From positions 12,702 to 76,701 of the forward strand of contig CAYODK010000001.1 in the NCBI GenBank assembly GCA_964402695.1: a stretch of DNA of 64,000 nt, given 5' to 3'. The translations under genes were made by a program, and so were the position numbers. Under the pieces are notes generated by a model. The model saw nothing but the letters and a program-made list of their open reading frames with translations. It ran no database searches and was not told where the DNA came from. Every line of letters begins with the position of its first letter. Position 1 is the first letter of the stretch. The stretch is from an uncultured Verrucomicrobiota bacterium (GTDB lineage Bacteria > Verrucomicrobiota > Kiritimatiellia > PWTM01). This document shows, in pieces, positions 2,783 through 35,940 of this stretch.

Positions 2783-2847
2783 AGGAAGGCAGAAGACTCC
2801 AAACTCCAAGGAAGTGGAAAGTCTGACGGAGAAGAAGGGAAGAAGGC
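2783..2847. repeat. solo (half) copy of the GAAACTCCAAACTCCAAGGAAGT MITE-like element arm
   Basis: ACTCCAAACTCCAAGGAAGTGG at ~2796-2817 plus GA-rich flank matches the left arm of the elements at 25351-25513 and 35751-35940. Confidence 0.6.
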
Positions 2848-2868
2848 CGGACGGCCTCCGTTTCGGGG

Positions 2869-2882
2869 TTCCAAGGGTTGGA
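2869..2882. promoter_or_regulatory. single TTCCAA-N3-TTGGA palindrome 35 nt upstream of the ychF-like gene
   Basis: ttccaagggttgga; same motif family as the tandem sites at 36014-36060 and 49640-49687. Confidence 0.35.
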
Positions 2883-2916
2883 CCCGGCCGGTATACTGCG
2901 CGGACGAGGCACATCC

Positions 2917-3981
2917 ATGGCACTGGCTCTCTACCTGATCGGAACGCCGCGATGCGGCAAGACGGCGGTCTTTGACGCGCTGACGAACACGCCGGCCGGC
3001 CCGAACTTCATGACCAAGGGCGGGCACCGCTACGGGACCGTCAAGGTCCCCGACACCCGGCTCGAGGCTCTCCGCGACCTCTTCAAGCCGAAGAAGTTCA
3101 CCCCGGCGGAGGTCACCTTCACCGACGTCGCCCCTCCGGGCGGCGAGGCGATCCACTTCGGCGACATGACCCCCGTGCTCGGCAATGCCGACGCGTTCGT
3201 CCTCGTCGTCCAGGCCTTTGGCGAGTTCGACTACGAGGGCAAGCCCCTCGACCCCGTCGCCCAGATGGAGTCGGTCATCCTCGAGATCACGGTGTCCGAC
3301 TTCGAACGCATCGAGAAGCGCATCGAGAAGGCCGTCACGGACAAGAAGCACGGCGGCAAGATGTCCGAACAGGAGATGAAGCTTCTCGAACGCTGCCGCG
3401 ACCATCTCGCGGCGGACAAGCCTCTCCGGACGATGGAGATGCGCGATGACGAGGAGAAGATCCTCCGCACCTACCAGTTCCTGTCGCAGAAGCCGCTGCT
3501 GGTCGTAGCGAACATCTCCGAGGACCGCATCCGCACCGGTGGCCTCGAGGCCCTCGACGCGGCGGCGAAGGAGCGCGGACTTGAGGTCCTGCAGTTCTGC
3601 GCGACGCTGGAGGCCGAGATCGCGACGCTCGATCCCGCCGCCCAGGTCGAGTTCCTCAAGGACTATGGCCTCGCCGAGCCCGCGCGCATCCGGCTCCTGC
3701 ACGCCGCCTACAAGGCCCTCCGGCTGATCAGCTTCTTCACCGTCGGCGAGGACGAGGTCCGGGCGTGGACGATCCACGAGGGCACCCACGCCCAGGCCGC
3801 CGCCGGCAAGATCCACACCGACATCGAGCGCGGCTTCATCCGCGCCGAGACCGTTCCCTCCGACGAACTGCTCCGCCAGGGCACCCTTGCGAAGTGCCGC
3901 GAACACGGCACGCTCCGCCTCGAGGGCAAGGAGTACATCGTCCGCGACGGCGAGGTCCTCCACTTCCGCTTCAGCGTGTGA
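2917..3981 (+). CDS. ychF: divergent YchF/Obg-like ATPase
   Basis: Track ORF 2878..3981; internal start MALALYLIGTPRCGKTAVFDALT (P-loop GxxxxGKT) and the C-terminal YchF/TGS signature GKIHTDIERGFIRAETV. The canonical NVGKST is replaced by RCGKTA. Confidence 0.7.
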   Translation: MALALYLIGTPRCGKTAVFDALTNTPAGPNFMTKGGHRYGTVKVPDTRLEALRDLFKPKKFTPAEVTFTDVAPPGGEAIHFGDMTPVLGNADAFVLVVQAFGEFDYEGKPLDPVAQMESVILEITVSDFERIEKRIEKAVTDKKHGGKMSEQEMKLLERCRDHLAADKPLRTMEMRDDEEKILRTYQFLSQKPLLVVANISEDRIRTGGLEALDAAAKERGLEVLQFCATLEAEIATLDPAAQVEFLKDYGLAEPARIRLLHAAYKALRLISFFTVGEDEVRAWTIHEGTHAQAAAGKIHTDIERGFIRAETVPSDELLRQGTLAKCREHGTLRLEGKEYIVRDGEVLHFRFSV

Positions 3982-4014
3982 TCCGGCACCCCGTCCCCGG
4001 TCGGCCGCGCGATG

Positions 4015-4049
4015 CAGGGGGACACACTTTATAAAGTCTGTCCCCCTGG
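4015..4049. terminator. bidirectional hairpin between the convergent ychF-like and RACo genes
   Basis: CAGGGGGACACA-ctttataaagt-CTGTCCCCCTGG forms a 10-11 bp GC-rich stem with an AT-rich loop. Confidence 0.55.
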
Positions 4050-4183
4050 TGGGCTCTTCCGGATCAGCGGGTCGATTCGAGCGAACCCCTGCCCGGGTCG
4101 GGCGCCCTGCCTGACAGGATGAGTCCGGCCGTTCCGAAACAGCTCGCCAGGAGCGCGCCCATGATGCGCGGTGTGATCCTCGA

Positions 4184-6100
4184 TCATCCCCGGGGAGGGG
4201 TCGCACGGGTGGACTGCCACATCTCCTGCGTTGCCGCCGCGAAGGCGGAGGGGTCGGCGTTGGGGAGGAGCATCGAGTCGATGTAGGCGGACTCGAACTC
4301 CGGGCGGAGGTTGAGTTCGACCGGTTCGGCGGCGCGGATAATGCGCTCGAACTCCGCGGCGGCGCCGGGGCCGCCGAGCGCGAGGACCGCGCCGGCGAGC
4401 GAGCCGTTGCCGATCACCTCGATCTTCCCGGCGGGCAGGTCGGGCAGCAGCCCCATCCACGCGGCGTGGCGCAGGTGAATGTAGCGTGCGAAGCCTCCGG
4501 CGAGGATCAGCGTGTCGAGATCCGCGACGGTGCGCCCGGCGGCGGCGAGCAGGGTCACGATGCCCGCGTGGATCGCGGCCTTGGCCTTCAGGATTTCGGC
4601 GACGTCCGCCTCGGAGACCGTCAGCGGGTGCCCGGCGGCGGTCGCCTCGGCGGGCACGACGCGGCAGGCGTGGATGTGCCGGCCTCGGTGGTCGACCCGC
4701 GCGTCGAGGCCGGCGGCGCGGAGCCGGTCCATGTCGAAGCGGCCGAGCGCGTCGAGGAGGCCGGACCGGAACGACTGGGCGACGAAGTCGACGATCGCCG
4801 ACCCGCAGAATCCGGCCGCCGGAGCGCCGCCGATCGTCGTCCATTCGGCCTCCGGCCCGTCCGTCCAGCGCACGTGGTCCACCGCGCCGTCGGCCGCGCG
4901 CATGCCGTGGCGCAGCCCCGCGCCCTCGAATGCCGGTCCCGCCGCAGTCGCCGCGCACAGGAGCCGGGCGCCGTCCCAGAGCAGGATTTCGCCGTTGGTG
5001 CCGATGTCGACCAGGGCCACGAGACCCTTGCGGTCGAGAAGCCGCGCCGCGCAGGCGTCCGCGACCAGGTCCCCGCCGACGTGCCCCGTCATCGAGGGCA
5101 GCACGTCGACGATCGCGTTCGGGTTCGCCGCGAGGCCCAGGTCGCGCGCGCGGCACTCCGGGTGGCGGCGGCGCACCGGCTGGAACGGCATCGCGCCGAT
5201 ACCCGCCGGGGTGAGCCCGAGAAACAGGTGCGCCATCACCGTGTTTCCGGCGGCGGTCACGCGAACGATCGCCTCCGGCGCGCAGCCGGCCTTCTCGCAC
5301 AGTTCGGCGGCCAGCCGGTTGATCGTGTCGCGCACGACGAGCGACTGCAGCTGGGCCAGCCCCCCGGGCGCCATGGAGACCGTGATCCGGGCGGCCACGT
5401 CGTCGCCCTTCCGCATCTGCGCGTTGTAGGCGGACGCGCGGCCGATCGCGGCGCCGGTGTCGAGATCGGCCAGCAGCGCGACGACGGTTGTGGTTCCGAT
5501 GTCGACGGCGAGCCCCAGGTGGCGGGTTGTCCCGGCCGGCGCGACCGCCGTAACGTCCACGCCCCCCCGGAACGGCCCCCATGAAACGTCCAGGCGGGGG
5601 GCTGCGGCCAGATGTCCCGGGAGTTCCCGCGCAACGTGGAGATCCGGAACCGCCCCCTCGGGACCCCCGGCCCCGGTGAGCGCGAGCGCGAGTCGTTCCA
5701 CGTCGGAGGAGGCGGTCTCCCAGGTGCCGCCGGAGACGGCGACCGTCGCGCGCCGCTGCACCGGTGTCCAGGCGAAGGCCGGAATCACGAAGTCGTCGGC
5801 GATGCTGGCCCGCTGCTCGACCAGCGACCGGTCCGGGATCTCCACCACGGCATCCGCGGAAGCGGGCCGCGTGCCGCAGGCCTGCGCCCGGCGCGGCGCG
5901 CCCGGCTCCACGCGCACCTCGGAGCCGCGGATGACAAACGCGCCCTCGTGGAGGATGACGGCGCAGCGGCCGCAGGCGCCGCGCGCGCCGCAGGCCGTGT
6001 TGAGCGGGATGCCGGCGGCGAACGCGAGATCCGCCAGCGTGGAACCGGGGGGGCCGTCCTGGATCCGGGTCTCGCCGCGGATCCGGAAGCGCACGCTCAT
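4184..6100 (-). CDS. corrinoid reductive activase (RACo-type: 2Fe-2S ferredoxin plus ASKHA ATPase domain)
   Basis: The N-terminus LNTACGARGACGRCAV is a plant-type ferredoxin Cys cluster. It is followed by a long ASKHA/DUF4445-like region (DIGTTTVV...VDIGTNGEI). It lies 22 nt downstream of a B12-binding protein gene on the same strand. Confidence 0.75.
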   Translation of the reverse strand: MSVRFRIRGETRIQDGPPGSTLADLAFAAGIPLNTACGARGACGRCAVILHEGAFVIRGSEVRVEPGAPRRAQACGTRPASADAVVEIPDRSLVEQRASIADDFVIPAFAWTPVQRRATVAVSGGTWETASSDVERLALALTGAGGPEGAVPDLHVARELPGHLAAAPRLDVSWGPFRGGVDVTAVAPAGTTRHLGLAVDIGTTTVVALLADLDTGAAIGRASAYNAQMRKGDDVAARITVSMAPGGLAQLQSLVVRDTINRLAAELCEKAGCAPEAIVRVTAAGNTVMAHLFLGLTPAGIGAMPFQPVRRRHPECRARDLGLAANPNAIVDVLPSMTGHVGGDLVADACAARLLDRKGLVALVDIGTNGEILLWDGARLLCAATAAGPAFEGAGLRHGMRAADGAVDHVRWTDGPEAEWTTIGGAPAAGFCGSAIVDFVAQSFRSGLLDALGRFDMDRLRAAGLDARVDHRGRHIHACRVVPAEATAAGHPLTVSEADVAEILKAKAAIHAGIVTLLAAAGRTVADLDTLILAGGFARYIHLRHAAWMGLLPDLPAGKIEVIGNGSLAGAVLALGGPGAAAEFERIIRAAEPVELNLRPEFESAYIDSMLLPNADPSAFAAATQEMWQSTRATPPRG

Positions 6101-6122
6101 GCGGGAATGACGGACGGCGCCG

Positions 6123-6752: not shown

Positions 6753-6777
6753 GACCGTCTCCTTTTCGGACTTCGTC

Positions 6778-9208: not shown

Positions 9209-9551
9209 GCGGGTCTTATACCACGCACGCCCTTCCTCCGCATCTTCCCTCGCCCCGCCCAGATCCTCGCCAAGCCGGATGTGCGCGGAAGGAATAGGCA
9301 TGAAGTACGCATGGTTACGGCCGCGACGGAGCGCGGCCCTCCAGTGCTCATCCAATCAACATGCGAGAGGACGGCTTTGGAGGGCGCCGCGGTGCCTGCC
9401 CTGCATAGCGTCTTCGCGAAGCAGGGTCGGCGCCGTGCAACAGACCCGCGGAGCAACGTTCGCCACCAATCACCGGGGCTTCGCCGAGGATTTGAGGCCC
9501 GGCTTCCGGGTTGCGCGCGCGATGCGGGGAGTGCATCGTCCCTTCCAGCGG

Positions 9552-14833: not shown

Positions 14834-14910
14834 GGGCCCGTAGCTCAGTTGGTCAGAGCTGGAGACTCATAATCTCTAGGTCGCAGGTTCGAGCCCTGCC
14901 GGGCCCACCA
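14834..14910 (+). tRNA. tRNA-Met (anticodon CAT; elongator-type, could also be tRNA-Ile2/lysidine)
   Basis: GGGCCCGTAGCTCAGTTGGTCAGAGCTGGAGACTCATAATCTCTAGGTCGCAGGTTCGAGCCCTGCCGGGCCCACCA: 7-bp acceptor stem GGGCCCG/CGGGCCC, anticodon loop CTCATAA, T-loop GTTCGAGCC, encoded CCA. Confidence 0.9.
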
Positions 14911-23726: not shown

Positions 23727-23802
23727 GCCGCGATCACCGATCGCGGCTACAGAAGGCGATGGGGTGAAACGGGCCGCTGCAGCCGCGACGGATCGTCGCG
23801 GC
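23727..23802. promoter_or_regulatory. two copies of palindrome GCCGCGA(C/T)(C/G)-N3-(G/C)(G/A)TCGCGGC upstream of FAD oxidoreductase 1
   Basis: gccgcgatc-acc-gatcgcggc (23727-23747, followed by tacag) and gccgcgacg-gat-cgtcgcggc (23782-23802, preceded by ctgca). Confidence 0.55.
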
Positions 23803-23869
23803 AATGCGTACGGGGGCGCAGGCCGGCCGGGACCACCGGTCCCGGCTACAGCAGATGGGGGACGATGCC

Positions 23870-25240
23870 ATGAGACGCCGCGGATTCCTCCAAACCGCCG
23901 CCGGGGCGACCGCCTGGGTCGCGTCGGGTCGCCGCGCATCCGCCGCCGCTGCGCCCACCGCGCCGGAGATCGCGTGGACGCGCCGGATCCCGGTGCGCTA
24001 CGAGGCGGACGTCGCGGTGATCGGCGGCGGCATGGCGGGGGTCGGCGCGGCCTGCGCGGCGGCGACGTCGGGTGCGAAGGTGATCCTCGTCGAGCGCTTC
24101 GCCGTCGCGGGCGGCATGCTGACGACCGGCGGCGTCGCCAACTTCTGCGGGCAGATGACGGGGCAGGGGGAGGTCTTCGACGAGATCCTCGCGGACCTCC
24201 GCGCGTGGAACGCCATCGGCCACGACCGCCGGGAGTCTGTGTTCCATCCCGAGGTCCTCGCCTTCGTCCTCCAGGAACTCCTGTTGCGGCGCGGCGTGAA
24301 GCTCCTGCTGCACGCGCGGTTCGCCGACGCGCGCGTCGACCGCGGCTGCATCACCGAGGCGGTGGTCTGTGGCAAGAGCGGTCCCGAGGCGCTGCGGGCG
24401 AGCCAGTTCATCGACTGCACCGGCGAGGCGGACGTCGCGCGGGCCGCCGGCTTCGCCGTGATGAAGGGGCGGCCGGAGGACGGCCTCCAGCTCCCGATGT
24501 CGATGATGTACTTCGTGCGGCACGTCCCGCCGGACGCTGCCGTGCCGGACCTGCCCGAGGGACGGTTGGACCGGATCGAGTCCGCGAAGGACCTGCCGAT
24601 GACCAGCATCTGGCCCGACGGCCCGGTCGGCAACGCGATCAAGATCAAGGTGCCGATGTTCGACTCGACGGACACGGAGAGCTTCACCGCCGGCGAGATC
24701 CAGGGCCGGCGCCGGATGATGCAGGTCATGGACTTCCACCGGCGCGTCCAGAAGCGCCCGTGGATGCTCGGCCACTGCTCGCCGGTCATCGGCATCCGCG
24801 AGGGCGCGCGGATCGCGGGCGACTACGTGCTGACGGTCGACGACCTCCGCGCCGGCCGCGCGTTCGACGACGCCGTCGCGCGCGGCACCTTCATGCTCGA
24901 CGGGCACAAGCCCGACGACGACAAGCGGACCTACATCCTGCCCGAGGACCAGCTCGCGGTGCCGCCGTACCAGATTCCGCTGCGGTGCCTCGTCGCGCGC
25001 GACGGAAAAAACCTCCTGATGGCCGGGCGGTGCATGTCCGCCGACCAGCTCGCGCTCTCCTCCGCCCGCGTCAGCACGACCTGCACGATGATGGGCCAGG
25101 CCGCCGGCATCGCCGCCGCGATGGCCGTGAAGAAGAACGGCTCCGTGCGGGACCTCGATCCGGCCGCGGTGCGGAAGATCGTCGAGGAACGCGGGGCCGA
25201 ACTTGCGGTCGGGAAGGCGAGGAAGGGTGGGACGACATGA
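23870..25240 (+). CDS. Tat-signal FAD-dependent oxidoreductase (FAD_oxidored/PF12831-like), paralogue 1
   Basis: MRRRGFLQTAAGATAWVASG (twin-Arg signal); DVAVIGGGMAGVGAACAAA (GxGxxG); three paralogues in this window share this architecture. Confidence 0.7.
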   Translation: MRRRGFLQTAAGATAWVASGRRASAAAAPTAPEIAWTRRIPVRYEADVAVIGGGMAGVGAACAAATSGAKVILVERFAVAGGMLTTGGVANFCGQMTGQGEVFDEILADLRAWNAIGHDRRESVFHPEVLAFVLQELLLRRGVKLLLHARFADARVDRGCITEAVVCGKSGPEALRASQFIDCTGEADVARAAGFAVMKGRPEDGLQLPMSMMYFVRHVPPDAAVPDLPEGRLDRIESAKDLPMTSIWPDGPVGNAIKIKVPMFDSTDTESFTAGEIQGRRRMMQVMDFHRRVQKRPWMLGHCSPVIGIREGARIAGDYVLTVDDLRAGRAFDDAVARGTFMLDGHKPDDDKRTYILPEDQLAVPPYQIPLRCLVARDGKNLLMAGRCMSADQLALSSARVSTTCTMMGQAAGIAAAMAVKKNGSVRDLDPAAVRKIVEERGAELAVGKARKGGTT

Positions 25241-25350
25241 ACCCCGAAACGCGGATCACGACGGATTGCACGGGTCGCACGGATGGGAGGGGCCGCCTCC
25301 AGAGGGCGCCATGCGGCGGTGCGGGTGGGCGGCGCCGAGGTTTCGTGCAC

Positions 25351-25513
25351 GGAAGTAGAGAAACTCCAAACTCCAAGGAAGTACGAAGAAAAGAAGGCCA
25401 AAGTCGGAGTGATTCCCGTGGGTACGTGCCCATCCAACCCGTGTTGCGGCCCCATCCTTCCCTACTTTCTCCTTTTCACTTCCTTGGAGTTTGGAGTTTC
25501 TTACTTTCCTTCC
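25351..25513. repeat. MITE-like element: ~45-bp imperfect inverted repeats with core GAAACTCCAAACTCCAAGGAAGT flanking ~58 bp
   Basis: Left arm ggaagtagagaaactccaaactccaaggaagt (25351-25382); right arm acttccttggagtttggagtttcttactttcc (25480-25511) is its reverse complement. Confidence 0.7.
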
Positions 25514-25530
25514 TCCGATCCATACCATCC

Positions 25531-27351
25531 GTGCAATCCGTGGCCCTCCTCTCCGCGGCGCTGCTGACCCTGTGCGCGGCGGGGCCGGGCGGCGTCCGGG
25601 CGGCGGAGATCGAGACCGACGTCTGCGTGTTCGGCGGAACCTCGGGCGGCGTCGCGGCGGGCGTGCAGGCGGCGCGGATGGGGAAGCGCGTCGTTCTCGC
25701 GGAACCCGGAAAGCACCTCGGCGGCATGACGTCGGGCGGTCTGAGCGCGGTCGACATCGGCGATCCGCGGACGGTCGGCGGGATCGCGCGGGAGTACTTC
25801 ACGCGGCTCGTCGCGTCGTACGGCAAGACGCTCGAGTGGGACCGCCCCTTCGTCGCCGCGGGCGGCGGCCCGGCGACCGGCGGGGCCTATGCGATCGAGC
25901 CCCGCGTGGCCGAGCGCGTTTTCGACGGCATGGCCCGCGAGGCCGGCGTGCGGGTCCTCCGCGGCGCCCGGCTCGCCTCGGTGCGCAAGGACGGCGCGCG
26001 GATCCGCGGGATCGCGATGGAGGACGGCACGGTCGTCCGCGCGAAGGTCTTCATCGACGCCACCTACGAGGGCGACCTGATGGCCGGGGCCGGCGTTTCC
26101 TTCACGCTGCTGCGCGAAGGCAACGCGAAGTACGGCGAGACCTACAACGGGATCCACTACAGCGACAAGTACCTTGCGCGCACGAACCACCTGAAGCCCG
26201 GTCCCCACGGCCGCGTGCCCGGCGGGCAGGGCGTGTGGGACCGCGACTTCCCGCTCGATCCGTACGTTGTGCCCGGAAATCCGGCGAGCGGGCTGCTGCC
26301 GCTGCTGAACCCCGGCGAACCCGGGACGCCCGGCGAGCCCGCCCCCGGCGTGCAGGCCTACTGCTACCGTCTGTGCCTGACGACCGATCCGACGAACCGG
26401 ATGCCGGTCGCCCCGCCCGCGGGCTACGATCCGAAGCGCTACGAGCTGGTCGCCCGCTTCATCGCCGCGTGCCTCGCGATCGGCGACGACATGGACCTGC
26501 GCTGGTTCTCCAAGCACGACCCGCTGCCGAACGCGAAGTGGGACTTCAACACCGCGACCTTCGGCGCCAACCTGCCCGGCGCGAGCTGGGAGTGGCCCGA
26601 GGCCTCCTACGCGCGCCGCGCGGAGATCGCGAAGGCGCACGAGGACCACATGCGCGGCCTGCTGCACTTCCTCGCGACCGACCCCCGCGTGCCGGCGAAG
26701 GTGCGCGACGACGTGAAGCGCTTCGGCCTGCCGCGCGACGAGTTTCCCGATACCGGCGGCTGGCCCCACCAGCTCTACGTCCGCGAGGCGCGCCGGATGG
26801 TCTCCGACCTCGTGATGACCGAGCACCACACGTTCGGCCGCGCCGTCGCGCCGGACTCCGTAGGCCTCGGCTCCTACGGCACGGACACGCACGAGATCCG
26901 CCGCATCGTGAAGGACGGCGTCGTGCAGCGCGAGGGCAAGACCGCGACCGGCCGCGACGGCGCGCCGCCGTATCCGGTCGGCTACGGCGCGATCGTGCCG
27001 AAGACCGCGGAGTGCGACAACCTGCTCGTCACGTTCGCGCTCGCCGCCAGCCACACCGCCTTCAGCAGCATCCGCATGGAGCCGGTGCTGATGATCCTCA
27101 GCCAGTCCGCCGCGACCGCGGCGTGCCTGGCGATCGACGACGGCGTCGCGGTGCAGAAGGTCGACCGGCACCGCCTGCGCGAGCGGTTGCTGAAGGACGG
27201 ACAGATTCTCGATTGGGCCGCTGTAGCCGCGACCGCCGGTCGCGGCAATGCGCCCGTGGACGCAAGCCGGCCGGGGTCGACGCCCCCGGCTCCAGAAGAT
27301 GGCGGGCGCGGCATGGGAGACTTTGCGAAGAACGGAAGGACGGGACCATGA
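25531..27351 (+). CDS. secreted FAD-dependent oxidoreductase (PF12831-like), paralogue 2
   Basis: In-frame GTG start (VQSVALLSAALLTLCAAG signal peptide) just after the MITE; [19 protein letters not shown] Rossmann motif; this is the downstream half of track ORF 23764..27351. Confidence 0.65.
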   Translation: MQSVALLSAALLTLCAAGPGGVRAAEIETDVCVFGGTSGGVAAGVQAARMGKRVVLAEPGKHLGGMTSGGLSAVDIGDPRTVGGIAREYFTRLVASYGKTLEWDRPFVAAGGGPATGGAYAIEPRVAERVFDGMAREAGVRVLRGARLASVRKDGARIRGIAMEDGTVVRAKVFIDATYEGDLMAGAGVSFTLLREGNAKYGETYNGIHYSDKYLARTNHLKPGPHGRVPGGQGVWDRDFPLDPYVVPGNPASGLLPLLNPGEPGTPGEPAPGVQAYCYRLCLTTDPTNRMPVAPPAGYDPKRYELVARFIAACLAIGDDMDLRWFSKHDPLPNAKWDFNTATFGANLPGASWEWPEASYARRAEIAKAHEDHMRGLLHFLATDPRVPAKVRDDVKRFGLPRDEFPDTGGWPHQLYVREARRMVSDLVMTEHHTFGRAVAPDSVGLGSYGTDTHEIRRIVKDGVVQREGKTATGRDGAPPYPVGYGAIVPKTAECDNLLVTFALAASHTAFSSIRMEPVLMILSQSAATAACLAIDDGVAVQKVDRHRLRERLLKDGQILDWAAVAATAGRGNAPVDASRPGSTPPAPEDGGRGMGDFAKNGRTGP

Positions 27352-30300
27352 AGCGAATCATCCTGGGGGCGGGGCTGGCGGCGATGGCGTGGGCCGGCGG
27401 CGCGGGCGCGGCGGACAACGGCTGCCGGCGGACGACGGTCTTCGAGAGCGGCAGGGACGGCTACAACACGTACCGGATCCCGTCGATCGTCGCGACGGCG
27501 AAGGGCACGCTGCTCGCGTTCTGCGAGGGGCGGCGCCACGGCAGCGGCGACGCGGGCGACATCGACCTGCTGCTGAAGCGCTCCACCGACGGCGGGGCGA
27601 CGTGGTCGGCCGCGCAGGTCGTCTGGGACGACGGCGCCAACACCTGCGGCAACCCGTGCGCGGTGGTCGATGGCGCGTCGGGCACCGTCCGCCTGCTCCT
27701 GACCTGGAACCGCGGCGACGACCGCGAGTCGCAGATCATCGACGGCACAAGCAAGGACACGCGGCGCGTGTTCGTGACGTCCTCGAAGGACGACGGCCGC
27801 ACGTGGGACAAGCCGCGCGAGATCACGGCGGACGTGAAGAAGACCAACTGGACCTGGTACGCGACCGGTCCCGGCGCGGGGATCCAGATGGAGCAGGGGC
27901 CGCACAAGGGCCGGCTCGTGATCCCGTGCGACCACATCAAGGCGGGCACGAAGGCGTACGATTCGCATGTGCTGCTCTCCAACGACGGCGGCGCGACGTG
28001 GTGGCTCGGCGGATCCACGGTCCACGGCAAGGTCAACGAGTGCGAGGTCGCCGAACTGCCCGGCGGCCGGCTGATGCTCAACATGCGCAACTACGACCGC
28101 GCGCAGAAGGTGCGGCGGGTTGCGTTCAGCGACGACTGGGGGGCGACGTGGGGCAAGGTCGGGGCCGACGAGGCGCTGATCGAACCGGTCTGCCAGGCCA
28201 GCCTGCGGCGGATCGCGTGGGGCGCGGACGGCAAGGAGGGGCTGCTCGCGTTCTCGAACCCTGCGAGCACCTCCGGCCGGGTCAACATGGCGGTGAGGCT
28301 CAGCCGCGACGGCGGCCGCACGTGGCCGGCCCTGCGGACGCTGCACGCGGGTCCGGCGGCCTACTCGTGCCTCGTCGCGCTGCCCGGCGGCGACATTGGC
28401 TGCCTCTACGAGGCGGGGGCGCGGAGCCCGTACGAGTCGATCGTCTTCGCGCGCTTCACGCCGGCGTGGGTCGACGAGGGGCGCATGGACGTCATCCGCC
28501 GGCAGCCCGGCTACGTGTCCTCCGAGTTCATCTACGAGTCCGCGCCGTTCCCTTCGTGCCACGCATCGACCGTCATCGAGACGGGCGACGGCGCCCTCGC
28601 CGCGGCGTGGTTCGGGGGAACGGCGGAGAAGAACCCCGACGTGTGCATCTACGTCGCGCGCCGCGAGGCCGGGCGGTGGACCGCGCCCGTCGAGGTCGCC
28701 AACGGCGTGCAGGCCGACGGCACGCGCCATCCCTGCTGGAACCCGGTTCTGTTCCAGCCGCGGGGTGGGCCGCTGATGCTCTTCTACAAGGTCGGCCCCG
28801 ACCCGCGCACGTGGTGGGGCATGCTGCGGACCTCGACCGACGGCGCCCGCACGTGGAGTGACGCGCGCCGTCTGCCCGACGGCATCCTCGGTCCGATCAA
28901 GAACAAGCCGGTGCAGCTCGCCAGCGGCGACATCCTCGCGCCGACCAGCAGCGAGCACGACGGATGGCGCGTCCACTTCGAGCGCAGCGCCGACGGCGGC
29001 GCGACGTGGGCCGCCACGCCCGCGATCAACGACGGCAGGGAGATCGGCGCGATCCAGCCGAGCATCCTCTTCCCCGGCGGCGACCGGCTCCTCGCGGTCG
29101 GCCGCACGCGGCAGGCGAAGGTTTTCCGGATCGAGTCCGCCGACCTCGGGAAGACCTGGGGGACGATGACGCTCACCGACCTGCCCAACCCGAACTCGGG
29201 GACGGATGCGGTGACGTTGAAGGACGGCCGGCATCTGCTGGTCTACAACCACACCGCGAAGGGGCGCTCGCCGCTCAACGTCGCGGTCTCGTCCGACGGC
29301 GCGACGTGGAAGCACGCGCTCACCCTCGAGGACGAGCCGCGGGCGGAGTTCAGCTACCCCGCCGTCATCCAGGCGCGCGACGGCCTCGTCCACATCACCT
29401 ACACGTGGAAGCGGCAGAAGGTGCGGCACGTCGTGGTCGACCCGGCGAAGCTGCAACTGACCGACATCCCCGGGCCGCCGAACCTGGCGGTCAAGGGCCG
29501 CGGCTGGACCTTCGCGAAGCTGGCCAACGGGGAGAAGGCGTTCTCGAACCGGCCCTACGTCTGGGACGGCGTGCCGGCGGCGTTCCGCGACTGGCGGATC
29601 ACGCAGATCGCGGGCGGCGAGCCGTACGAGACCCGCGTGACGGCGCGGAATGCGACGCGGATCCATGCGGCCATGGTTTCGTCGAAGAGCGCGACGGCGT
29701 TCTCGGGGTGGACGATGGAAGACGGGGTCGAGTTCCGCTACACCGACGGCGGCAAGACGCGCATGCAGGTGTGGTCGCGCGAGCTGAAGGCGGACGAGGA
29801 GGTCGCGCTGCCCAAGGGCGGCTGGGCGGGGACGCTGCTGATGGTGCCGCCGGACGCGAAGGTCACCGTCACCGAGGCGCCGCTGCCGTCGGCGCAGACG
29901 CTGACTCGGCTGCCATACAACAACCCCGGGCTCGTCGTCGATCTCGGCGTCGGCCTGTGGGCCTGGCCGCTGCCGGTCGACTACGACGGCGACGGCGACC
30001 TCGACCTCGTCGTCAACTGCCCCGACAAGCCCTACAACGGGCTCTACTTCTCCCCTAAGCCGGGGGGGGGGCAGGTGCGTTCGTCGGCCGGGCGCGCACC
30101 CAACGATTTGGGGCAGACAGGAGTGTCTGCCCCACGGGGGGGGGTGGGGCAGGCACTCCTGCCTGCCCGGAGTCAGCCCCAGATAGAGGGGTCTGCCCCG
30201 CTGCCGGTCTTCAAGCCCGGACGACGGGTCAGCAAGGGCATGCAGAACGTCCAGATCAGCACCGTCGACGGCAGGCCGCGCGTGCTGTCGCCGGGGACGG

Positions 30301-31958
30301 AGCACCCGGACTTCCTCAAGACGGGTCTCGAGAACGGCGTGAAGCTGCCGCTTCCGGCGAACATCCATCCGAACAAGGTTCGCGCGAACATGTGGCGCAT
30401 CGTCGACTACGACGGCGACGGCGCGCAGGACCTCGTTGTCGGCGTCGGCGACTGGACCGACTACGGCTGGGACAACGCGTACACGGCGGACGGGACGTGG
30501 ACGAACGGTCCGCTGCGCGGCTTCGTTTACGTTGCGCGAAACAAGGGCACGACGGCGAAGCCGGACTACGAGGCGCCCGTGAAGGTGGAGGCTGCGGGCA
30601 AGGCCGTCGAGGTGTTCGGCTGGCCCTCGCCGAACTTCGCGGATTGGGACGGCGACGGCGATCTCGACCTTCTCTGCGGCGAGTTCCTCGACGGGTTCAC
30701 CTACTTCGAGAACCAGGGGACGCGCAAGGCCCCGGCGTACGCCGCCGGCCGGCGAGTACGGACGCCGGATGGGAAGCCGCTGGCAATGGACCTGCAGATG
30801 ATCACGCCGACGGCGATCGACTGGGACGGGGACGGCGACCAGGACCTGATCGTCGGCGACGAGGACGGCCGCGTGGCGTTCGTCGAGAACGTGAGCGACG
30901 TGGGGCAGACACTCCTGTCTGCCCCAAACCGGACCCCTTCCGTGGCGCAGGACGGGGCAGACAAGAGTGTCTGCCCCACGACGCCGGGTTTCCTCCCCCC
31001 CCGCTACTTCCGGCAGGAGGCGGAGAGCGTGAAGTTCGGCGCGCTCGCGACGCCGTGCGGGTTCGACTGGGACGGCGACGGCGACACCGACATCGTCAGC
31101 GGCAACACGGCCGGCTACATCGCGTTCATCGAAAACCTGAGCGGCCCGAAGGTGGCGACGCCGAAATGGGCGGAGCCGGAGTATCTCGAGGCCGATGGCA
31201 GGATCCTCCGCATCATGGCCGGCCCCAACGGCAGCATCCAGGGGCCGTGCGAGGCAAAGTGGGGCTACACGACGCAGACAGTCGCGGATTGGGACGGCGA
31301 CGGCCTGCCGGACATTGTCGCCAACTCGATCCTCGGCAAGGTGCACTGGTATCGCAACACCGGCACGCGGACGTCGCCGAAGCTCGCGGCGGCGCAGCCG
31401 GTCGAGGTCGAGTGGAACGGTCCGCAGCCCGCGCTGGCCTACGGCTGGCTGCGCCCTCAGGGCAAGGCGCTGCTGACGCAGTGGCGCACGACGCCGGTCG
31501 CGGTGGACTGGAACCGCGACGGCCTGACCGACCTTGTGATGCTCGACCAGGAGGGCTACCTCGCCTTCTTCCAGCGCGCGCGGCGCGACGGCCGGCTGGT
31601 GCTGCTGCATCCGCGGCGCGCGTTCTGCGACGACACCGGCGCGGCGCTGCGGATGAACGCGGGGATCGCGGGGCGGAGCGGGCGGCGGAAGCTGTGCGTC
31701 GTCGACTGGGACGGCGACGGGAAGCTCGACATCCTCGCCAACGCCGCCAACGCGCGGTTTCACCGGCAGGTCGGAGAGAAGGACGGCACGTGGCTTTTCA
31801 AGGACATGGGCCTGCTCGTCGAGCACAACATCGAGGGCCACGACGTGAGCCCGACGGTCGTCGATTTCGACGGCAACGGCATCCCCGACTTCCTCGGCGG
31901 CGCCGAAGACGGCCACTTCTACTTCCTCCCCAATCCCCGCGCCCACCTGATGCGCTGA
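27348..31958 (+). CDS. giant exo-alpha-sialidase (GH33) plus second BNR/sialidase-like domain plus beta-sandwich plus FG-GAP/VCBS repeat domain
   Basis: ATG 27348 (ATGA overlap) gives MKRIILGAGLAAMAWAGGAGA signal. YRIPSI (RIP motif) and five Asp-boxes (STDGGATWS, SKDDGRTWD, SNDGGATWW, SDDWGATWG, SRDGGRTWP). A second BNR set follows (STDGARTWS, SADGGATWA, ADLGKTWG, SSDGATWK). Then nine DxDGDGxxD FG-GAP/VCBS repeats. This is the in-frame part of track ORF 25491..31958. Confidence 0.7.
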   Translation: MKRIILGAGLAAMAWAGGAGAADNGCRRTTVFESGRDGYNTYRIPSIVATAKGTLLAFCEGRRHGSGDAGDIDLLLKRSTDGGATWSAAQVVWDDGANTCGNPCAVVDGASGTVRLLLTWNRGDDRESQIIDGTSKDTRRVFVTSSKDDGRTWDKPREITADVKKTNWTWYATGPGAGIQMEQGPHKGRLVIPCDHIKAGTKAYDSHVLLSNDGGATWWLGGSTVHGKVNECEVAELPGGRLMLNMRNYDRAQKVRRVAFSDDWGATWGKVGADEALIEPVCQASLRRIAWGADGKEGLLAFSNPASTSGRVNMAVRLSRDGGRTWPALRTLHAGPAAYSCLVALPGGDIGCLYEAGARSPYESIVFARFTPAWVDEGRMDVIRRQPGYVSSEFIYESAPFPSCHASTVIETGDGALAAAWFGGTAEKNPDVCIYVARREAGRWTAPVEVANGVQADGTRHPCWNPVLFQPRGGPLMLFYKVGPDPRTWWGMLRTSTDGARTWSDARRLPDGILGPIKNKPVQLASGDILAPTSSEHDGWRVHFERSADGGATWAATPAINDGREIGAIQPSILFPGGDRLLAVGRTRQAKVFRIESADLGKTWGTMTLTDLPNPNSGTDAVTLKDGRHLLVYNHTAKGRSPLNVAVSSDGATWKHALTLEDEPRAEFSYPAVIQARDGLVHITYTWKRQKVRHVVVDPAKLQLTDIPGPPNLAVKGRGWTFAKLANGEKAFSNRPYVWDGVPAAFRDWRITQIAGGEPYETRVTARNATRIHAAMVSSKSATAFSGWTMEDGVEFRYTDGGKTRMQVWSRELKADEEVALPKGGWAGTLLMVPPDAKVTVTEAPLPSAQTLTRLPYNNPGLVVDLGVGLWAWPLPVDYDGDGDLDLVVNCPDKPYNGLYFSPKPGGGQVRSSAGRAPNDLGQTGVSAPRGGVGQALLPARSQPQIEGSAPLPVFKPGRRVSKGMQNVQISTVDGRPRVLSPGTEHPDFLKTGLENGVKLPLPANIHPNKVRANMWRIVDYDGDGAQDLVVGVGDWTDYGWDNAYTADGTWTNGPLRGFVYVARNKGTTAKPDYEAPVKVEAAGKAVEVFGWPSPNFADWDGDGDLDLLCGEFLDGFTYFENQGTRKAPAYAAGRRVRTPDGKPLAMDLQMITPTAIDWDGDGDQDLIVGDEDGRVAFVENVSDVGQTLLSAPNRTPSVAQDGADKSVCPTTPGFLPPRYFRQEAESVKFGALATPCGFDWDGDGDTDIVSGNTAGYIAFIENLSGPKVATPKWAEPEYLEADGRILRIMAGPNGSIQGPCEAKWGYTTQTVADWDGDGLPDIVANSILGKVHWYRNTGTRTSPKLAAAQPVEVEWNGPQPALAYGWLRPQGKALLTQWRTTPVAVDWNRDGLTDLVMLDQEGYLAFFQRARRDGRLVLLHPRRAFCDDTGAALRMNAGIAGRSGRRKLCVVDWDGDGKLDILANAANARFHRQVGEKDGTWLFKDMGLLVEHNIEGHDVSPTVVDFDGNGIPDFLGGAEDGHFYFLPNPRAHLMR
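30062..30071. repeat. homopolymeric G10 tract inside the coding sequence
   Basis: ccggggggggggcagg; a second G9 tract lies at ~30136-30144 and a C8 tract at ~30995-31002. Confidence 0.8.
30110..30168. repeat. pair of 24-nt palindromic hairpins GGGGCAGACA-N4-TGTCTGCCCC and GGGGCAGGCA-N4-TGCCTGCCC inside the sialidase gene
   Basis: ggggcagacaggagtgtctgcccc (30110-30133) and ggggcaggcactcctgcctgccc (30146-30168), both translated in-frame (GQT...SAP). Confidence 0.8.
30902..30977. repeat. second pair of the same palindromic hairpins, 0.8 kb downstream in the same gene
   Basis: ggggcagacactcctgtctgcccc (30902-30925) and ggggcagacaagagtgtctgcccc (30954-30977). Confidence 0.8.
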
Positions 31959-31970
31959 TAAGAAGAGGAC

Positions 31971-32922
31971 GACAACCGAATGGGGACAACCGAATGATGA
32001 GGGAAGTAGGACAAGGTTGGTAGCGCTGGAAAGAGGCTGTTGACGATGTCGATTCAGTGTTCCATTCCGGTGCGAGACTTGAGCAAGGGCGAGTTCGACG
32101 AACGCGACGCCGTCGTGATGCGCTGCGCCTATGCATCCCAGAACTGCCTGGGAAGGCTCTGCGACGAGCAGGTCTATGAGAATGATCTGGCATTGCGCCT
32201 GAAAGCCGAGGGATTCTGCGAGATTCACACGCAGGTGCCGGTTGTCGTCACTCATGAGGGGTTTGAGAAGACCTATCGATTGGACCTCCTGGCCGACGAT
32301 GCGCTGTACGAGTTGAAGACGGTTGCGGCGCTGACCGCCGAGCATGACGCCCAATCGTTGCACTACGCCATGCTGCTGGGAGTCCGGCATTCGAAACTGC
32401 TGAACTTCAGGACGCCAAGGGTGCAGGGGCGGTTGAGATTCAACGCGATCGATCCAAGCCAAAGGATGAGGGTTACGTGGAGTACTTCGAAGTGGTGTCC
32501 GCTGTCCGATTCATGCGTTCACCTTAAAGAGTGGATTCAGGCCATGGTCTCCGACTGGGGCGCCTTTCTGGACTCCCACCTGTACGAAGAGGCGTTGATC
32601 CACTTCTGCGGCGGCGAGTTGAACTGCGTTCGCCGCGTGCCGGTGCTCCGAGAAGGTCGGCAACTGGGCACGCAGAGGGTCCAATGTCATGACGATGGCC
32701 TCTGCTTCCTCGTGACCGCCATGACGGCCGATGTTGAGCGATTTGCGGGGCATCTCCAACGCCTGCTTGCATTGACCCGGCAGCGCGGAATGCAATGGAT
32801 GAATCTCGATCGCGAACGTGTCCATCTGAACACCATTCGTCCCGAGGAAGTACATAGGACTTCATCATGAACAGGCATCATCCCTCCCTTCGGCACTATT
32901 CGGTTGTCCCCATTCGGTTGTC
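31971..32922. mobile_element. ~0.95-kb low-GC cassette with perfect 25-bp terminal inverted repeats carrying one PD-(D/E)XK-family gene
   Basis: Left TIR gacaaccgaatggggacaaccgaat at 31971-31995. Right TIR attcggttgtccccattcggttgtc at ~32898-32922 is its exact reverse complement. The interior is visibly AT-richer than its flanks. Confidence 0.7.
32040..32870 (+). CDS. GxxExxY / PDDEXK_3 (PD-(D/E)XK nuclease-like) family protein with extra C-terminal domain
   Basis: EQVYENDLALRLKAEGF...VPVVVTHEGFEKTYRLDLLADDALYELKTVAALTAEHDAQSLHYAMLLGVRHSKLLNF matches the GxxExxY family pattern; TTG start per the track, first ATG at 32046. Confidence 0.65.
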   Translation: MTMSIQCSIPVRDLSKGEFDERDAVVMRCAYASQNCLGRLCDEQVYENDLALRLKAEGFCEIHTQVPVVVTHEGFEKTYRLDLLADDALYELKTVAALTAEHDAQSLHYAMLLGVRHSKLLNFRTPRVQGRLRFNAIDPSQRMRVTWSTSKWCPLSDSCVHLKEWIQAMVSDWGAFLDSHLYEEALIHFCGGELNCVRRVPVLREGRQLGTQRVQCHDDGLCFLVTAMTADVERFAGHLQRLLALTRQRGMQWMNLDRERVHLNTIRPEEVHRTSS

Positions 32923-34120
32923 ATTCCGTTCGGCTGCCGCCGCTCTTTTCGCGGTGGCGTCTTCATCGGTCGCGGCGGAGGCTCCCCGGGCATCCGGGAC
33001 GAACATCACCAACCACGCCGAGTGGAGGAACGGGCGGCCGGTCGGTCTGCCGGGGGCGGTGACGGCGAGGGTCGAGACAGCCTTCGTCTACCGGCCCGAC
33101 GCCGACTCCGCGTGGGCCTACTCGCATCACCAGAGCCTCGCATGGTTCACGGGCCGCTGGTTCGCGATCTGGTCCAACGGCCGCGTGAACGAGGACGACC
33201 GCGGGCAGCGCGTGCTGCTCTCGACCTCGAAGGACTTCCTGACCTGGTCCGAGCCCCGCCCGCTCGCCGTGCCCGACCGCGACGGCTCCGGCGGGGAGCG
33301 CGTGCTGACCGCGGCCGGCTTCCACGAGCACGACGGCACGCTCGTCGCCTATTTCGGCAACTACGGCTTCCGCAAGGAGACCACGCACCTGCAGGCCGTG
33401 ACGACGACGGACGGCGACCGCTGGAGCGAGCCGCTCGAGATCGGCGTCCCCGTGAACCCGAACCACGGGCCGCAGCGGACCGCGTCCGGCCGGCTCATCA
33501 TCAGCGGCAACATCTCGTTCCCATGGACCGACGACCCCGCCGGCCTCACCGGCTGGCGCATGACCGGGATCCATCCCGCGAGCCTCAACTTCACCATCAA
33601 GGACGATCCATCCTCCTTCCACGACCTCGCGACGATGCAGGGCTGGCCGGCCGGGCTGTGCGAGGGCTCGTTCTACCAGACCGACGACCGCGTCCTCCAC
33701 ATGCTCCTGCGCAGCACCGGCCGCCCGCACGACGGCCGCCTGTGGATCAGCGAGAGCCGCGACGACGGCGCGACGTGGTCCGCGCCCGTCCCGACCGCGT
33801 TCAGCGACACCAATGCCAAGTTCCACTTCGGCCGCCTGCCCGACGGCCGCTTCTTCTACGTCGGCAACCCGGTCGGCGGCGGCCGGATCCCGCTTGTTCT
33901 GTCGCTCTCGCGCGACGGCGCATCGTTCGACCGGCACTTCATCCTCGGCGCGACGCCGTACGAGAAGCGGAAGGCCGGAACGCACAAGGGCGGCCACTAC
34001 GGCTACCCGCACACGCTGGTCCGCGACGGCTTCCTCCACGTGATCGTCTCGCGCCAGAAGGAGGCGGTCGAGGTGCTGCGCGTGGCGCTGTCGGAACTGA
34101 ACGAAGAGAGGGCGCGATGA
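32867..34120 (+). CDS. BNR-repeat sialidase-like glycoside hydrolase
   Basis: Asp-box-like STSKDFLTWS, TTDGDRWS, SRDDGATWS, SRDGASFD. The first 18 codons are encoded by the right TIR of the upstream cassette; an in-frame TTG at ~32918 gives a cleaner signal peptide (LSFRSAAAALFAVASSSVAA). Confidence 0.65.
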   Translation: MNRHHPSLRHYSVVPIRLSFRSAAAALFAVASSSVAAEAPRASGTNITNHAEWRNGRPVGLPGAVTARVETAFVYRPDADSAWAYSHHQSLAWFTGRWFAIWSNGRVNEDDRGQRVLLSTSKDFLTWSEPRPLAVPDRDGSGGERVLTAAGFHEHDGTLVAYFGNYGFRKETTHLQAVTTTDGDRWSEPLEIGVPVNPNHGPQRTASGRLIISGNISFPWTDDPAGLTGWRMTGIHPASLNFTIKDDPSSFHDLATMQGWPAGLCEGSFYQTDDRVLHMLLRSTGRPHDGRLWISESRDDGATWSAPVPTAFSDTNAKFHFGRLPDGRFFYVGNPVGGGRIPLVLSLSRDGASFDRHFILGATPYEKRKAGTHKGGHYGYPHTLVRDGFLHVIVSRQKEAVEVLRVALSELNEERAR

Positions 34121-34143
34121 GGGCAAGGATCGTGTGCGCCAGA

Positions 34144-34264
34144 GCCGCGACCAGCGGTCGCGGCTGCAGAAGAGGAACGCGAGGCATGTCCGACTGTAGC
34201 CGCGACGGGTCGTCGCGGCGACCTTGCCTCTACGAACGTACTGCCGCGACCAGCGGTCGCGGCC
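34144..34264. promoter_or_regulatory. three tandem copies of palindrome GCCGCGACC-N3-GGTCGCGGC upstream of FAD oxidoreductase 3
   Basis: Copies at 34144-34164, 34199-34219 and 34244-34264; the same palindrome is also at 23727, 23782 and 27227. Confidence 0.6.
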
Positions 34265-34277
34265 ACAGGGGACTCCG

Positions 34278-35663
34278 ATGACAACCATGAACCGGCGGAA
34301 TGCGATCAAGGGTCTGGCGCTCGGCGCCGCGGCGGGGTGGGGGGCATCGGCACGCGCGGAGGCCGCGCCGTCACCGCGGGCGGCGAAGCCGGCGGCCTGG
34401 CCGGCCGTTGACGTGCTCGTGTGCGGCGGGGGCCCGGCGGGCATCGCGGCGGCGCTGATGGCGGCGCGCGCGGGACGGAAGACGCTGCTGGTCGAGCGCT
34501 ACGGCCGGCTCGGCGGCATGGCGGTCCAGGCGATGGTCGGCCCGCTGATGGGCAGTGTGCGCAGCGCGCGTGTCGACGAGATCCTCGCGGCTCTGGGCGG
34601 GCGCAACGTCGACTACGAGTTCATCGACCTGACGTACACGGAGCTCCTCGAGAAGGCCGGCTGCCGGATCCTGCTCCACGCGTGGGCCGCGGAGCCGCTG
34701 ATGGACGGCCGGCGCGTCGCCGGGGCGCGGCTGGTCACCAAGCAGGGGCCGATCGACGTGTCCGCGCGCGTGACGGTCGATGCGACCGGAGACGGCGACC
34801 TCGCGGCCGGCGCCGGCGCCGCGTTCGACCAGGGCCGCGACAAGGGGCCGACCTGGGAGGCCGACGGCCTCGTCCAGCCGATGACCATCATGTTCCGCGT
34901 CTCCGGCGTGAAGCACGAGGAGACGATGGAGGCCAACCGCGGCCGGAAGGCGTTCCGGACCGCCGACGGCCGCACGTGGAACCAGTTCTGCAAGGACTCG
35001 TGCCTCGCCGGCGACCTCCCGCCGAACGTCGGGATGCTGCGGACCTACCTGTCGCACCGGCCCGACCAGCGCGTGATCAACGCGACGCAGATCAACGGAG
35101 TCGACGGCACGAAGGTCGAGGACCTCACGCGGGCCGAGCTGGAGGCCCGCCGCCAGGTGCGGCGGGTGATGGACTTCCTCCGCAAGCACGCGCCGGGCTT
35201 CAAGGACGCCTACGTCAGCGGCATGCCCGCCGTCATCGGCGTGCGCGAGACGCGGCGCATCCGCGGCGTCGAGACGTTGACGGTCGACGACCTCTTCGCG
35301 GGCCGCACGTGGCCGACCGCGGTCGTGCGCGGGGCGTCGTTCCCGGTCGACATCCACAATCCGACCGGGATGGGGCAGGCGCAGGGCGTCTCCGCGGCCC
35401 ATCCGCTCGGCAAGGACCCGAAGGTGAAGCCCTACGAGATCCCGTACGGCTGCCTCGTCCCGCGCGAGACCGACGGCCTGCTCGTCGCCGGCCGCTGCAT
35501 CAGCGGCACGCACGAGGCGATGGCCTCCTTCCGCGTCCAGGTCATCGCGATGGGCATCGGCCTCGCCGCCGGAACCGCGGCGGCGCAGGCGGTCGCGCAG
35601 GGCGTCGAACCGCGCGCGGTCGACGTGGAGGCGGTGCGGAAGGTCGTGTTGGCGGAGGCGTAG
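34278..35663 (+). CDS. Tat-signal FAD-dependent oxidoreductase (PF12831-like), paralogue 3
   Basis: MTTMNRRNAIKGLALGAAAGWGASARA twin-Arg signal; DVLVCGGGPAGIAAALMAA Rossmann motif. Confidence 0.7.
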   Translation: MTTMNRRNAIKGLALGAAAGWGASARAEAAPSPRAAKPAAWPAVDVLVCGGGPAGIAAALMAARAGRKTLLVERYGRLGGMAVQAMVGPLMGSVRSARVDEILAALGGRNVDYEFIDLTYTELLEKAGCRILLHAWAAEPLMDGRRVAGARLVTKQGPIDVSARVTVDATGDGDLAAGAGAAFDQGRDKGPTWEADGLVQPMTIMFRVSGVKHEETMEANRGRKAFRTADGRTWNQFCKDSCLAGDLPPNVGMLRTYLSHRPDQRVINATQINGVDGTKVEDLTRAELEARRQVRRVMDFLRKHAPGFKDAYVSGMPAVIGVRETRRIRGVETLTVDDLFAGRTWPTAVVRGASFPVDIHNPTGMGQAQGVSAAHPLGKDPKVKPYEIPYGCLVPRETDGLLVAGRCISGTHEAMASFRVQVIAMGIGLAAGTAAAQAVAQGVEPRAVDVEAVRKVVLAEA

Positions 35664-35750
35664 GCGCATGAGGACGGCGGCCCCCCCTATCCCATACGAT
35701 CCGGTTCGGACCCGGGATGGGACGGGGTGTGAATGCGAGTCGTCCAGCAT

Positions 35751-35940
35751 GGAAGTGAGAAACTCCAAACTCCAAGGAAGTGGGAAGTGCAACGAAGGAG
35801 AAGGAGGGAAGTCCGGACGAGTCGCAGGTGGGGAACCGGTTCGTCGGAGTCCGGTGCTTTTCGAAACGGCCTTGGATTTCCACCCGGGGGCTCTCCGACT
35901 TCCCTTCTTCTTCCTTGGAGTTTGGAGTTTCCCTACTTCC
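35751..35940. repeat. second full MITE-like element (inverted arms GGAAGTGAGAAACTCCAAACTCCAAGGAAG)
   Basis: Left arm at 35751-35812; right arm gacttcccttcttcttccttggagtttggagtttccctacttcc at 35897-35940 is its reverse complement. Confidence 0.7.

Follow-up and report, generated by a model that had tools for sequence, protein, structure and literature searches.

Hairpin repeats in DNA of an uncultured Verrucomicrobiota bacterium as probable relics of a miniature transposable element family with IS1380-type ends

The 64,000-nt stretch of DNA analyzed here (the window) comes from an uncultured Verrucomicrobiota bacterium (assembly GCA_964402695.1, contig CAYODK010000001.1, positions 12,702 to 76,701) and contains several hairpin-forming inverted repeats. 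These are probably three relic copies of a lineage-specific, high-copy and non-coding family of MITEs, or miniature inverted-repeat transposable elements, bearing ends of the IS1380 type. In size, terminal inverted repeats (TIRs), copy number, polymorphism and outer ends shared with insertion sequences (ISs) the family is as expected of MITEs; of the features tested, only the target duplication gave a mixed picture. A preliminary description, made from the sequence alone, had read the repeats as MITE-like and possibly mobile, or else as transcription terminators or insulators, and had suggested counting their copies, predicting their folding and comparing orthologous spacers. The mobile reading is now supported by the copy count and by absence at orthologous loci, with two amendments: what delimits the mobile unit in the full form is the outer IS1380-type TIRs and not the core arms on which the repeats had been recognized, and the terminator or insulator idea found no support (see below).

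Copies of the Element in the Window

The repeats share a 23-nt core, GAAACTCCAAACTCCAAGGAAGT, which has five matches in the window against 0 expected (100 shuffles). These cores form two inverted pairs and one lone arm (Table 1). A hidden Markov model (HMM) of 104 arms from related loci, run with filters off, recovered the same five window arms and none further in the 64 kb. In addition, a full-element HMM of 321 positions, built from eight full copies, was used for an nhmmer search of the window. This model aligned end to end with copy 2 (35696-35992, model positions 7-321, E 7.5e-47), and it also matched 2722-2905 (model positions 1-169, E 1e-32) and, on the minus strand, copy 1 (model positions 56-294, E 1.4e-26). 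The two pairs and the arm listed in the preliminary description are thus present, but their boundaries had been drawn too narrowly. Copy 2 spans about 306 nt rather than 190, the pair at 35751-35940 being its inner hairpin. It is around 60% identical to intact copies from a related metagenome-assembled genome (MAG; see below), and its match counts to the intact TIRs were made by eye from the alignment and the sequence.

The supposed solo arm at about 2783-2847 does have a single core, but it is really the truncated left half of a composite copy and carries an outer TIR. The TAG stop of a response-regulator gene (2258-2722) shares its final base with the start of this copy. On its right side the remnant was delimited at the point, about 2858, from which the window is homologous to the DNA upstream of ychF in MAG locus L046.

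Copy 1 is placed after the stop at 25240 and before a GTG start at 25531, which opens a signal peptide, and so separates two FAD oxidoreductase genes (FADox-1 and FADox-2), as had been described. It is enclosed by a 13-nt exact repeat, the longest outer inverted repeat among the elements lacking IS1380 ends. The right partner of this repeat overlaps the FADox-2 GTG start, and the FADox-2 start region would be buried in the base of the long hairpin if the spacer were transcribed. The location of both pairs downstream of FAD oxidoreductase genes (23804-25240 and 34224-35663) was borne out by PF12831 matches. This link looks coincidental, since the same positions are empty in relatives.

The copies also stand out in base composition: copy 2 has a GC content of 59.5% and copy 1 of 53%, against 70.6% for the window, and elements overall have 50-60% against about 70% in the host.

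Table 1. Positions of the element copies, their parts and other repeats or differences in the window (locus coordinates are given where they refer to other contigs).
Feature	Position	Strand	Remarks
Truncated left half of composite (former solo arm)	2722-2857	+	about 136 nt; HMM and homology break
Outer TIR of truncated copy, GCCGGAACGATTCAGCTG	2722-2739	+	nearly perfect
Internal right-end-like GAATCGGTCCGG of truncated copy	2768-2779		
Core of truncated copy	2793-2815	+	21/23, 2 mismatches
13-nt exact outer inverted repeat ACGGATTGCACGG around copy 1	25261-25273, partner 25529-25541	+ (25261-25273)	extends hairpin to about 290 nt
Copy 1, inner-only hairpin module without IS1380-type ends, FADox-1/FADox-2 spacer	25326-25517	-	nhmmer
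Left core, copy 1	25360-25382	+	23/23
Right core, copy 1	25478-25500	-	23/23
Copy 2, complete but decayed composite, IS1380-type outer ends around hairpin module	35690-35995	+	nhmmer and segment missing in orthologous loci
Left outer TIR, copy 2, degenerate, TCCCATACGATCCGGTTC	35690-35707	+	11/18 vs GCCGGAACGATTCAGTTG
Left core, copy 2	35759-35781	+	23/23
Right core, copy 2	35909-35931	-	22/23, 1 mismatch
Right outer TIR, copy 2, degenerate, CAACCGCATTGCTCCGGC	35975-35992	+	14/18 vs CAACTGAATCGTTCCGGC
TCCAA-N3-TTGGA sites	2870-2882, 36014-36026, 36046-36058, 49642-49654, 49673-49685		often pairs 31-32 nt apart
GTAG-tagged REP-like repeats	23727-23864, 27215-27308, 34144-34271		
Palindromes in FG-GAP/BNR open reading frame	30104-30136, 30899-30931, 30954-30984		
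Content differences between window and L072	27298-27330 and 37046-37090		vs L072 2045-3117 and 12466-13948
Abutting MITEs at other loci	L053 5995-6605; L057 37-378; L031 33-375; L047 81-402; L136; L162		

Copies in Other Genomes and Anatomy of the Full Element

Public genomes, one per species, were scanned with the exact 19-mer core ACTCCAAACTCCAAGGAAG, and at least 62 loci and at least 104 arms were found. Among the matches listed, nearly all came from the MAG 'uncultured Verrucomicrobiota SRP272421_co4_497' (CAYRFK01). Another Verrucomicrobiota MAG (CAYXFW01) and one MAG labelled Phycisphaerales contributed a few; three others, from a Flavobacterium-like MAG, an Algoriphagus genome and CAYGDP01, look like chance matches. 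The window does not belong to CAYRFK01 itself but to a relative of it: the window ychF and another block are 86-89% identical at the DNA level to MAG loci L046 and L021. About one in 20 intergenic regions holds an element. A scan of viral contigs gave no match to the core and a single match to the outer TIR, which lies inside a coding region and is probably due to chance.

Alignment of the 183-185-nt class together with its flanks revealed that conservation continues for about 65 nt on each side. Full MAG copies measure 318-322 nt and are bounded by the inverted repeat GCCGGAACGATTCAGTTG ... CAACTGAATCGTTCCGGC, the outer TIR of composite copies being 18 nt long. Within these ends lies the inner tier, a hairpin of some 215 nt with imperfect pairing. 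The pattern AAGT-N4-AAACTCCAAACTCCAAGGAAGT-N3-AAG-N4-AAGG is common to its arms, beyond which the sequence fades, purine-rich on the left and pyrimidine-rich on the right; the core arms extend over about 32-55 nt in all copies. In the left outer part of the composite, the left end is followed about 30 nt inward by a right-end-like GAATCGTTCCGG. This part looks like a 58-nt mini-element, after which come the hairpin and a second right end. Inner-only copies, which lack the IS1380-type ends, make up 28 of the 44 pairs in the MAG, and their centres vary widely in length and sequence. The limits of their HMM matches gather around model positions 53-66 and 267-277; a CCGG stands at a fixed distance from the core (14-15 or 20 nt) in roughly 41 of 112 arms, for the most part those of composite copies, and does not fix the real limits of the inner unit. 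All units fall between 93 and 322 nt, with no room for a transposase, and the open reading frames (ORFs) that run across them are spurious read-throughs. The recurrence of a core-derived peptide in such ORFs had been pointed out before, and AAACTCCAAACTCCAAGGAAG does translate to KLQTPRK.

The usual layout is a plus core followed by a minus core 75-212 nt later, and many core matches are located at contig ends. Invertible promoters of Bacteroides have a variable segment between identical inverted repeats. The arrangement found here at dozens of loci, with identical inverted repeats around a variable segment of 55-190 nt, together with the many MAG contigs that break at elements, recalls such an inverton, the cores being the recombination sites of an invertible switch. 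This explanation is exceedingly unlikely. In every long composite match (about 24 top matches) the centre, which is asymmetric, runs collinear with outer parts that are likewise asymmetric; HMM scores on the opposite strand fall to about one third, and no flipped copy was seen. Moreover, the elements contain no internal sigma-70-like promoter, no recombinase gene was noticed beside the copies, and elements are placed after genes and not before them.

Ends Shared with IS1380 Family Insertion Sequences

A metagenome scan with the 18-mer TIR yielded at least 120 loci. In at least 15 of them, an inverted TIR pair 1490-1513 nt apart surrounds one ORF of 463-476 aa. Two such ORFs scored 228 and 237 bits on the NCBIfam model NF033539 'IS1380 family transposase' (cutoff 180) and also matched PF13701. 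The TIR-bounded transposases are mutually only 53-62% identical, yet they have the same ends. Their protein family has 1706 matches at E <= 1e-60, including proteins that NCBI assigns to Lentisphaerae and Verrucomicrobiales MAGs and whose contigs bear these ends as well; one Lentisphaerae IS copy splits a gene and has CTTAG on both flanks. Many further TIR loci correspond to elements of 165-250 nt that have only the 18-nt ends in common with the element described here. The IS group has therefore given rise to many independent MITEs. The outer TIRs are thus shared with autonomous ISs; for the core arms no autonomous partner was found, and comparison of the inner hairpin with the interior of the IS copies gave no similarity.

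The DDE-type TIRs of the full form and the direct repeats flanking some of its copies also bear on a reading of the family as repetitive extragenic palindromic (REP) elements or their doublets (REPINs), moved by a REP-associated tyrosine transposase (RAYT) of the IS200/IS605-like kind. Such elements are, like these, high-copy, extragenic and arranged as inverted doublets, and classical GTAG-tagged REP-like palindromes do occur elsewhere in the window. This reading is nevertheless very improbable: besides the ends just mentioned, the core is not palindromic and has neither a GTAG nor a CGTC tag, the units are 90-320 nt long and not 20-40 nt, and no RAYT gene was seen.

Evidence of Mobility

Further analysis of the flanks revealed identical 3-nt sequences on both sides in 11 of 15 ISs, 12 of 35 short MITEs and two of eight composite copies. 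The clean composite cases are L020, with CTTAG on either side, and L060, with CTGAG on either side; the copies in the window are too worn to count for or against a duplication. TNA is present on both flanks in 33 of 58 elements, usually in a C-TNA-G context. An early reading of these flanks as a TNA duplication of the IS5/IS1031 type was dropped once the transposase proved to belong to the IS1380 family. Members of that family generate direct repeats of 4-5 bp. The C-TNA-G flanks amount to a 3-bp repeat if the terminal G/C is counted within the TIR; with the element taken to begin at CCGG, the repeat is one of 5 bp (CTNAG). The sequence fits both.

Neighbouring IS1380-type MITEs often follow each other in head-to-tail or tail-to-tail order, exactly 3 nt (TNA) apart (Table 1). 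Existing copies may be hot spots for new insertions, because each insertion recreates C-TNA-G at both its ends.

Near-identical copies occur at unrelated loci (L020 and L057, 96% identical; L060 and L031, 99%), and these pairs therefore indicate recent spread. The comparison of orthologous spacers suggested in the preliminary description gave presence/absence differences for both pairs. The closest homologues of the FAD oxidoreductase encoded upstream of copy 2 are 91% identical, and the same gene order is found on several metagenome contigs. Three relatives (L063, L065 and L066) lack precisely the segment occupied by copy 2, the DNA being 84-92% identical on both sides; their empty site reads CCACCCTCAGACTCG, that is, CTCAG, at the position of the 306-nt element. 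Copy 1 is absent from the FADox-1/FADox-2 spacer of L072, where other palindromic repeats are found, and the core was not detected anywhere in L072 (21 kb). In a second empty-site comparison, the L009 and L023 intergenic regions were not alignable.

Gene context could be assigned, using crude gene calls, for 31 elements with callable neighbours: none was inside a gene, 18 were between tandem genes, 12 between convergent genes and one between divergent genes. This distribution fits tolerated insertion at gene 3' ends, or a target resembling a stop codon.

Hairpin Structure and the Terminator Hypothesis

In the folding prediction that had been suggested, both window pairs form long hairpins (z = -7.5 and -3.8). 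Outside the conserved positions, arms taken from the same element are no more alike than arms taken from different ones, and at some positions they are less alike, the left and right arms being two distinct types. This lack of covariation indicates that it is the sequence that is conserved and not the pairing, which speaks against selection acting on the hairpin itself, whether of RNA or of DNA.

These data are relevant to the proposal that the hairpins are terminators, insulators or mRNA-stabilizing structures that the host uses after its genes. The great predicted stability of the hairpins and their location near gene 3' ends, almost never between divergent genes, would agree with such a role, and other bacterial MITEs affect termination and RNase processing (PMC10969869). 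Against it, the stem is followed by no U-tract: searches for intrinsic terminators gave 0 and 1 sites, no more than in shuffled sequences and none at the hairpin base. A sigma-70 consensus promoter was not found in the elements. In Rfam searches, the window gave only a tRNA (14834-14907, 72 bits) at the gathering score, and the intact copies gave only sub-threshold hairpin look-alikes. The arms do not covary, the element is missing from orthologous sites of close relatives in which the same gene pairs are intact, and only about one in 20 intergenic regions has one. The terminator or insulator idea of the preliminary description is accordingly disfavoured, and we consider a host role of this kind improbable.

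Conservation of the Core and Points Against the Proposed Origin

Several observations weigh against an origin of these copies as MITEs mobilized through IS1380-type ends. No IS1380 transposase gene was detected by tblastn with two transposases in the window or in about 430 kb of MAG loci (L001-L062), a search that took in part of the MAG, from which kind of assembly IS copies are often lost. Identical flanks are found in only two of the eight composites, several of which adjoin another copy. The 28 of 44 pairs that have no IS1380-type ends have a mode of spread that this origin does not account for, and neither a target-site duplication nor a sharp edge was found in inner-only copies; outer inverted repeats around them have a chance length of 6-9 nt, except for the 13-nt repeat around copy 1. 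Finally, the core is kept far better than transposition via the outer TIRs requires. The loci had been found by exact core matches, which inflates the apparent conservation; partner arms, which were not used for finding loci, are unbiased in this respect and had only 9 core mismatches in 855 positions (about 99% intact), against 20-60% conservation at neighbouring arm positions. Likewise, copy 2 has decayed TIRs and almost intact cores (Table 1).

The arm of about 55 nt with its 23-nt core could be, although we think it rather unlikely, the recognition end of a second mobilization system, or a host-factor site kept at each locus. An active arm of this sort would explain both the survival of cores in TIR-decayed copies and the majority of pairs that do without those ends. 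Put more generally, the core would be the binding site of a host protein or of a second transposase, maintained by selection, and the hairpin module would be functional or independently mobile and would hitch-hike in IS1380-type MITEs. In addition to the conservation data and the many end-less pairs with clustered HMM boundaries, this is favoured by the roughly periodic arrangement of the conserved blocks (AAGT, core, AAG, AAGG), as expected of a protein footprint. On the other hand, no ORF was found between core arms, the 104 arms being all paired less than 400 nt apart or at contig ends; the inner-only copies show no target-site duplication; and one core has been lost in some CAYXFW01 copies and in L001. 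Continuous propagation from intact-core lineages alone could mimic constraint, but this needs the core to matter for spread. Taking both sides into account, we give this alternative a small though real share of the probability.

One lone core arm was located directly upstream of a gene whose product resembles a ParB-like nuclease domain protein (L026 4843-5735, CAYRFK010000017.1; product judged by eye), and no partner for it was found.

Proposed Origin and Significance

Under the favoured reading, that of MITEs with IS1380-type ends, an IS1380 family transposase supplied in trans would bind the outer TIRs and move the 321-nt composite. The hairpin module would be an older repeat caught between IS1380-type ends; its greater age is suggested by the far greater diversity of its copies. 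Capture may have occurred through the use of a surrogate end by an IS1380 member, as happens with neighbouring DNA: the IS1380 members ISEcp1 and ISPme1 carry adjacent DNA by using a surrogate right end (PMC9330008). The window copies are probably no longer mobile and would be relics, because the TIRs of copy 2 have decayed, the right half of the copy at 2722 is gone and IS1380-type ends are missing from copy 1. If neighbouring genes were affected, this would merely follow from the insertion of a large hairpin into a 3' intergenic region.

This reading accounts for a conspicuous repeat of an uncultured Verrucomicrobiota lineage and probably also for the breaks of MAG contigs at elements. It ties the repeat to a very widespread IS1380 subgroup of Planctomycetes-Verrucomicrobia-Chlamydiae bacteria that is the source of many unrelated short MITEs. 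Among the matches listed, the Verrucomicrobiota lineage and a single metagenome contig (L129) were alone in having the core hairpin within IS1380-type ends. In practical terms, annotators gain a model for masking spurious KLQTPRK ORFs, and the elements mark recent insertions and are usable as strain or species markers. Since the elements place hairpins as long as about 300 nt in the spacers of co-directional genes, expression of these genes may be altered.

Other Repeats and Differences in the Window

A palindrome, TCCAA-N3-TTGGA (usually TTCCAA-N3-TTGGAA), occurs five times in the window against 0.01 expected, and about 17 more were found in related MAG loci. Its sites are found a short way upstream of the starts of genes (ychF at 2917 and a gene at about 36054). 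It is kept at the MITE-free site of the relatives (7 further matches, all at that one site). The palindrome is separate from the MITE, and it may be an operator or promoter element of the lineage.

REP-like palindromes with a GTAG tag, CTGTAGCCGCGACC-N-GGTCGCGGC, which stand singly or as doublets, make up a second intergenic family; units like them were also found within some MITE centres of the MAG (L052, L054 and L042). The long FG-GAP/BNR ORF contains near-perfect palindromes of 31-33 nt, GGGGCAGACA-N4-TGTCTGCCCC, through which the frame stays open. Sixty nucleotides at 30893-30953 are missing from the orthologue (L072 6701-6704), and this segment looks like an in-frame palindromic insertion in a coding gene, reminiscent of the Rickettsia palindromic elements. 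Furthermore, a 49-nt inverted repeat with tandem GACAACCGAATG (31962-32010 and 32883-32931) brackets a PDDEXK_3 (PF13366) ORF at 32040-32870. In its build, with GGGAAGT coming after a short motif in tandem, the repeat is similar to the MITE arms, and the PDDEXK_3 gene is at the same place in relatives (L063 3782-4600).

Two segments of L072 (84-92% identical) are missing from the window: one, of about 1.07 kb, is the BNR_2 portion of a FADox-BNR fusion gene, and the other, of about 1.48 kb, holds a 479-aa gene of unknown function. Both differences fall within an otherwise syntenic glycan-degradation-like cluster of FAD oxidoreductases, BNR sialidase-like proteins and sulfatases.

Comparison with Known Systems

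The element has the same 18-nt terminal repeats as IS1380 family ISs of about 1.5 kb, and short direct repeats flank a part of the copies of both. It differs from them in its length of 321 nt and in having no transposase gene, and the lineage DNA that was sampled yielded no autonomous copy. Like the Correia elements of Neisseria and the ERIC/IRU elements of Enterobacteria, which are non-coding imperfect palindromes of 100-320 nt, it is high-copy, mostly intergenic, polymorphic and foldable (PMC10969869). In its way of life as a parasite of the genome it is likewise comparable to Correia or ERIC-type elements. There is, however, no sequence relation to those families, no promoter or IHF site was identified in this element, and they are not described as having a two-tier build whose inner module can also stand on its own. 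The pneumococcal BOX, RUP and SPRITE repeats resemble it in that small repeats nest or abut into composites (PMC10969869), as do the copies lying 3 nt apart here; those repeats have other hosts and sequences, and in the present case the composite has been multiplied as a unit, in copies 96-99% identical. With REP/REPIN elements it shares the extragenic location, high copy number and inverted doublets, while differing in the absence of a GTAG/CGTC tag and of a short palindrome, in size and in its DDE-type ends (PMC3733652). The family is thus an ordinary kind of bacterial repeat; what is unusual about it is that it is built in two tiers and that the core inside it is so strongly conserved.

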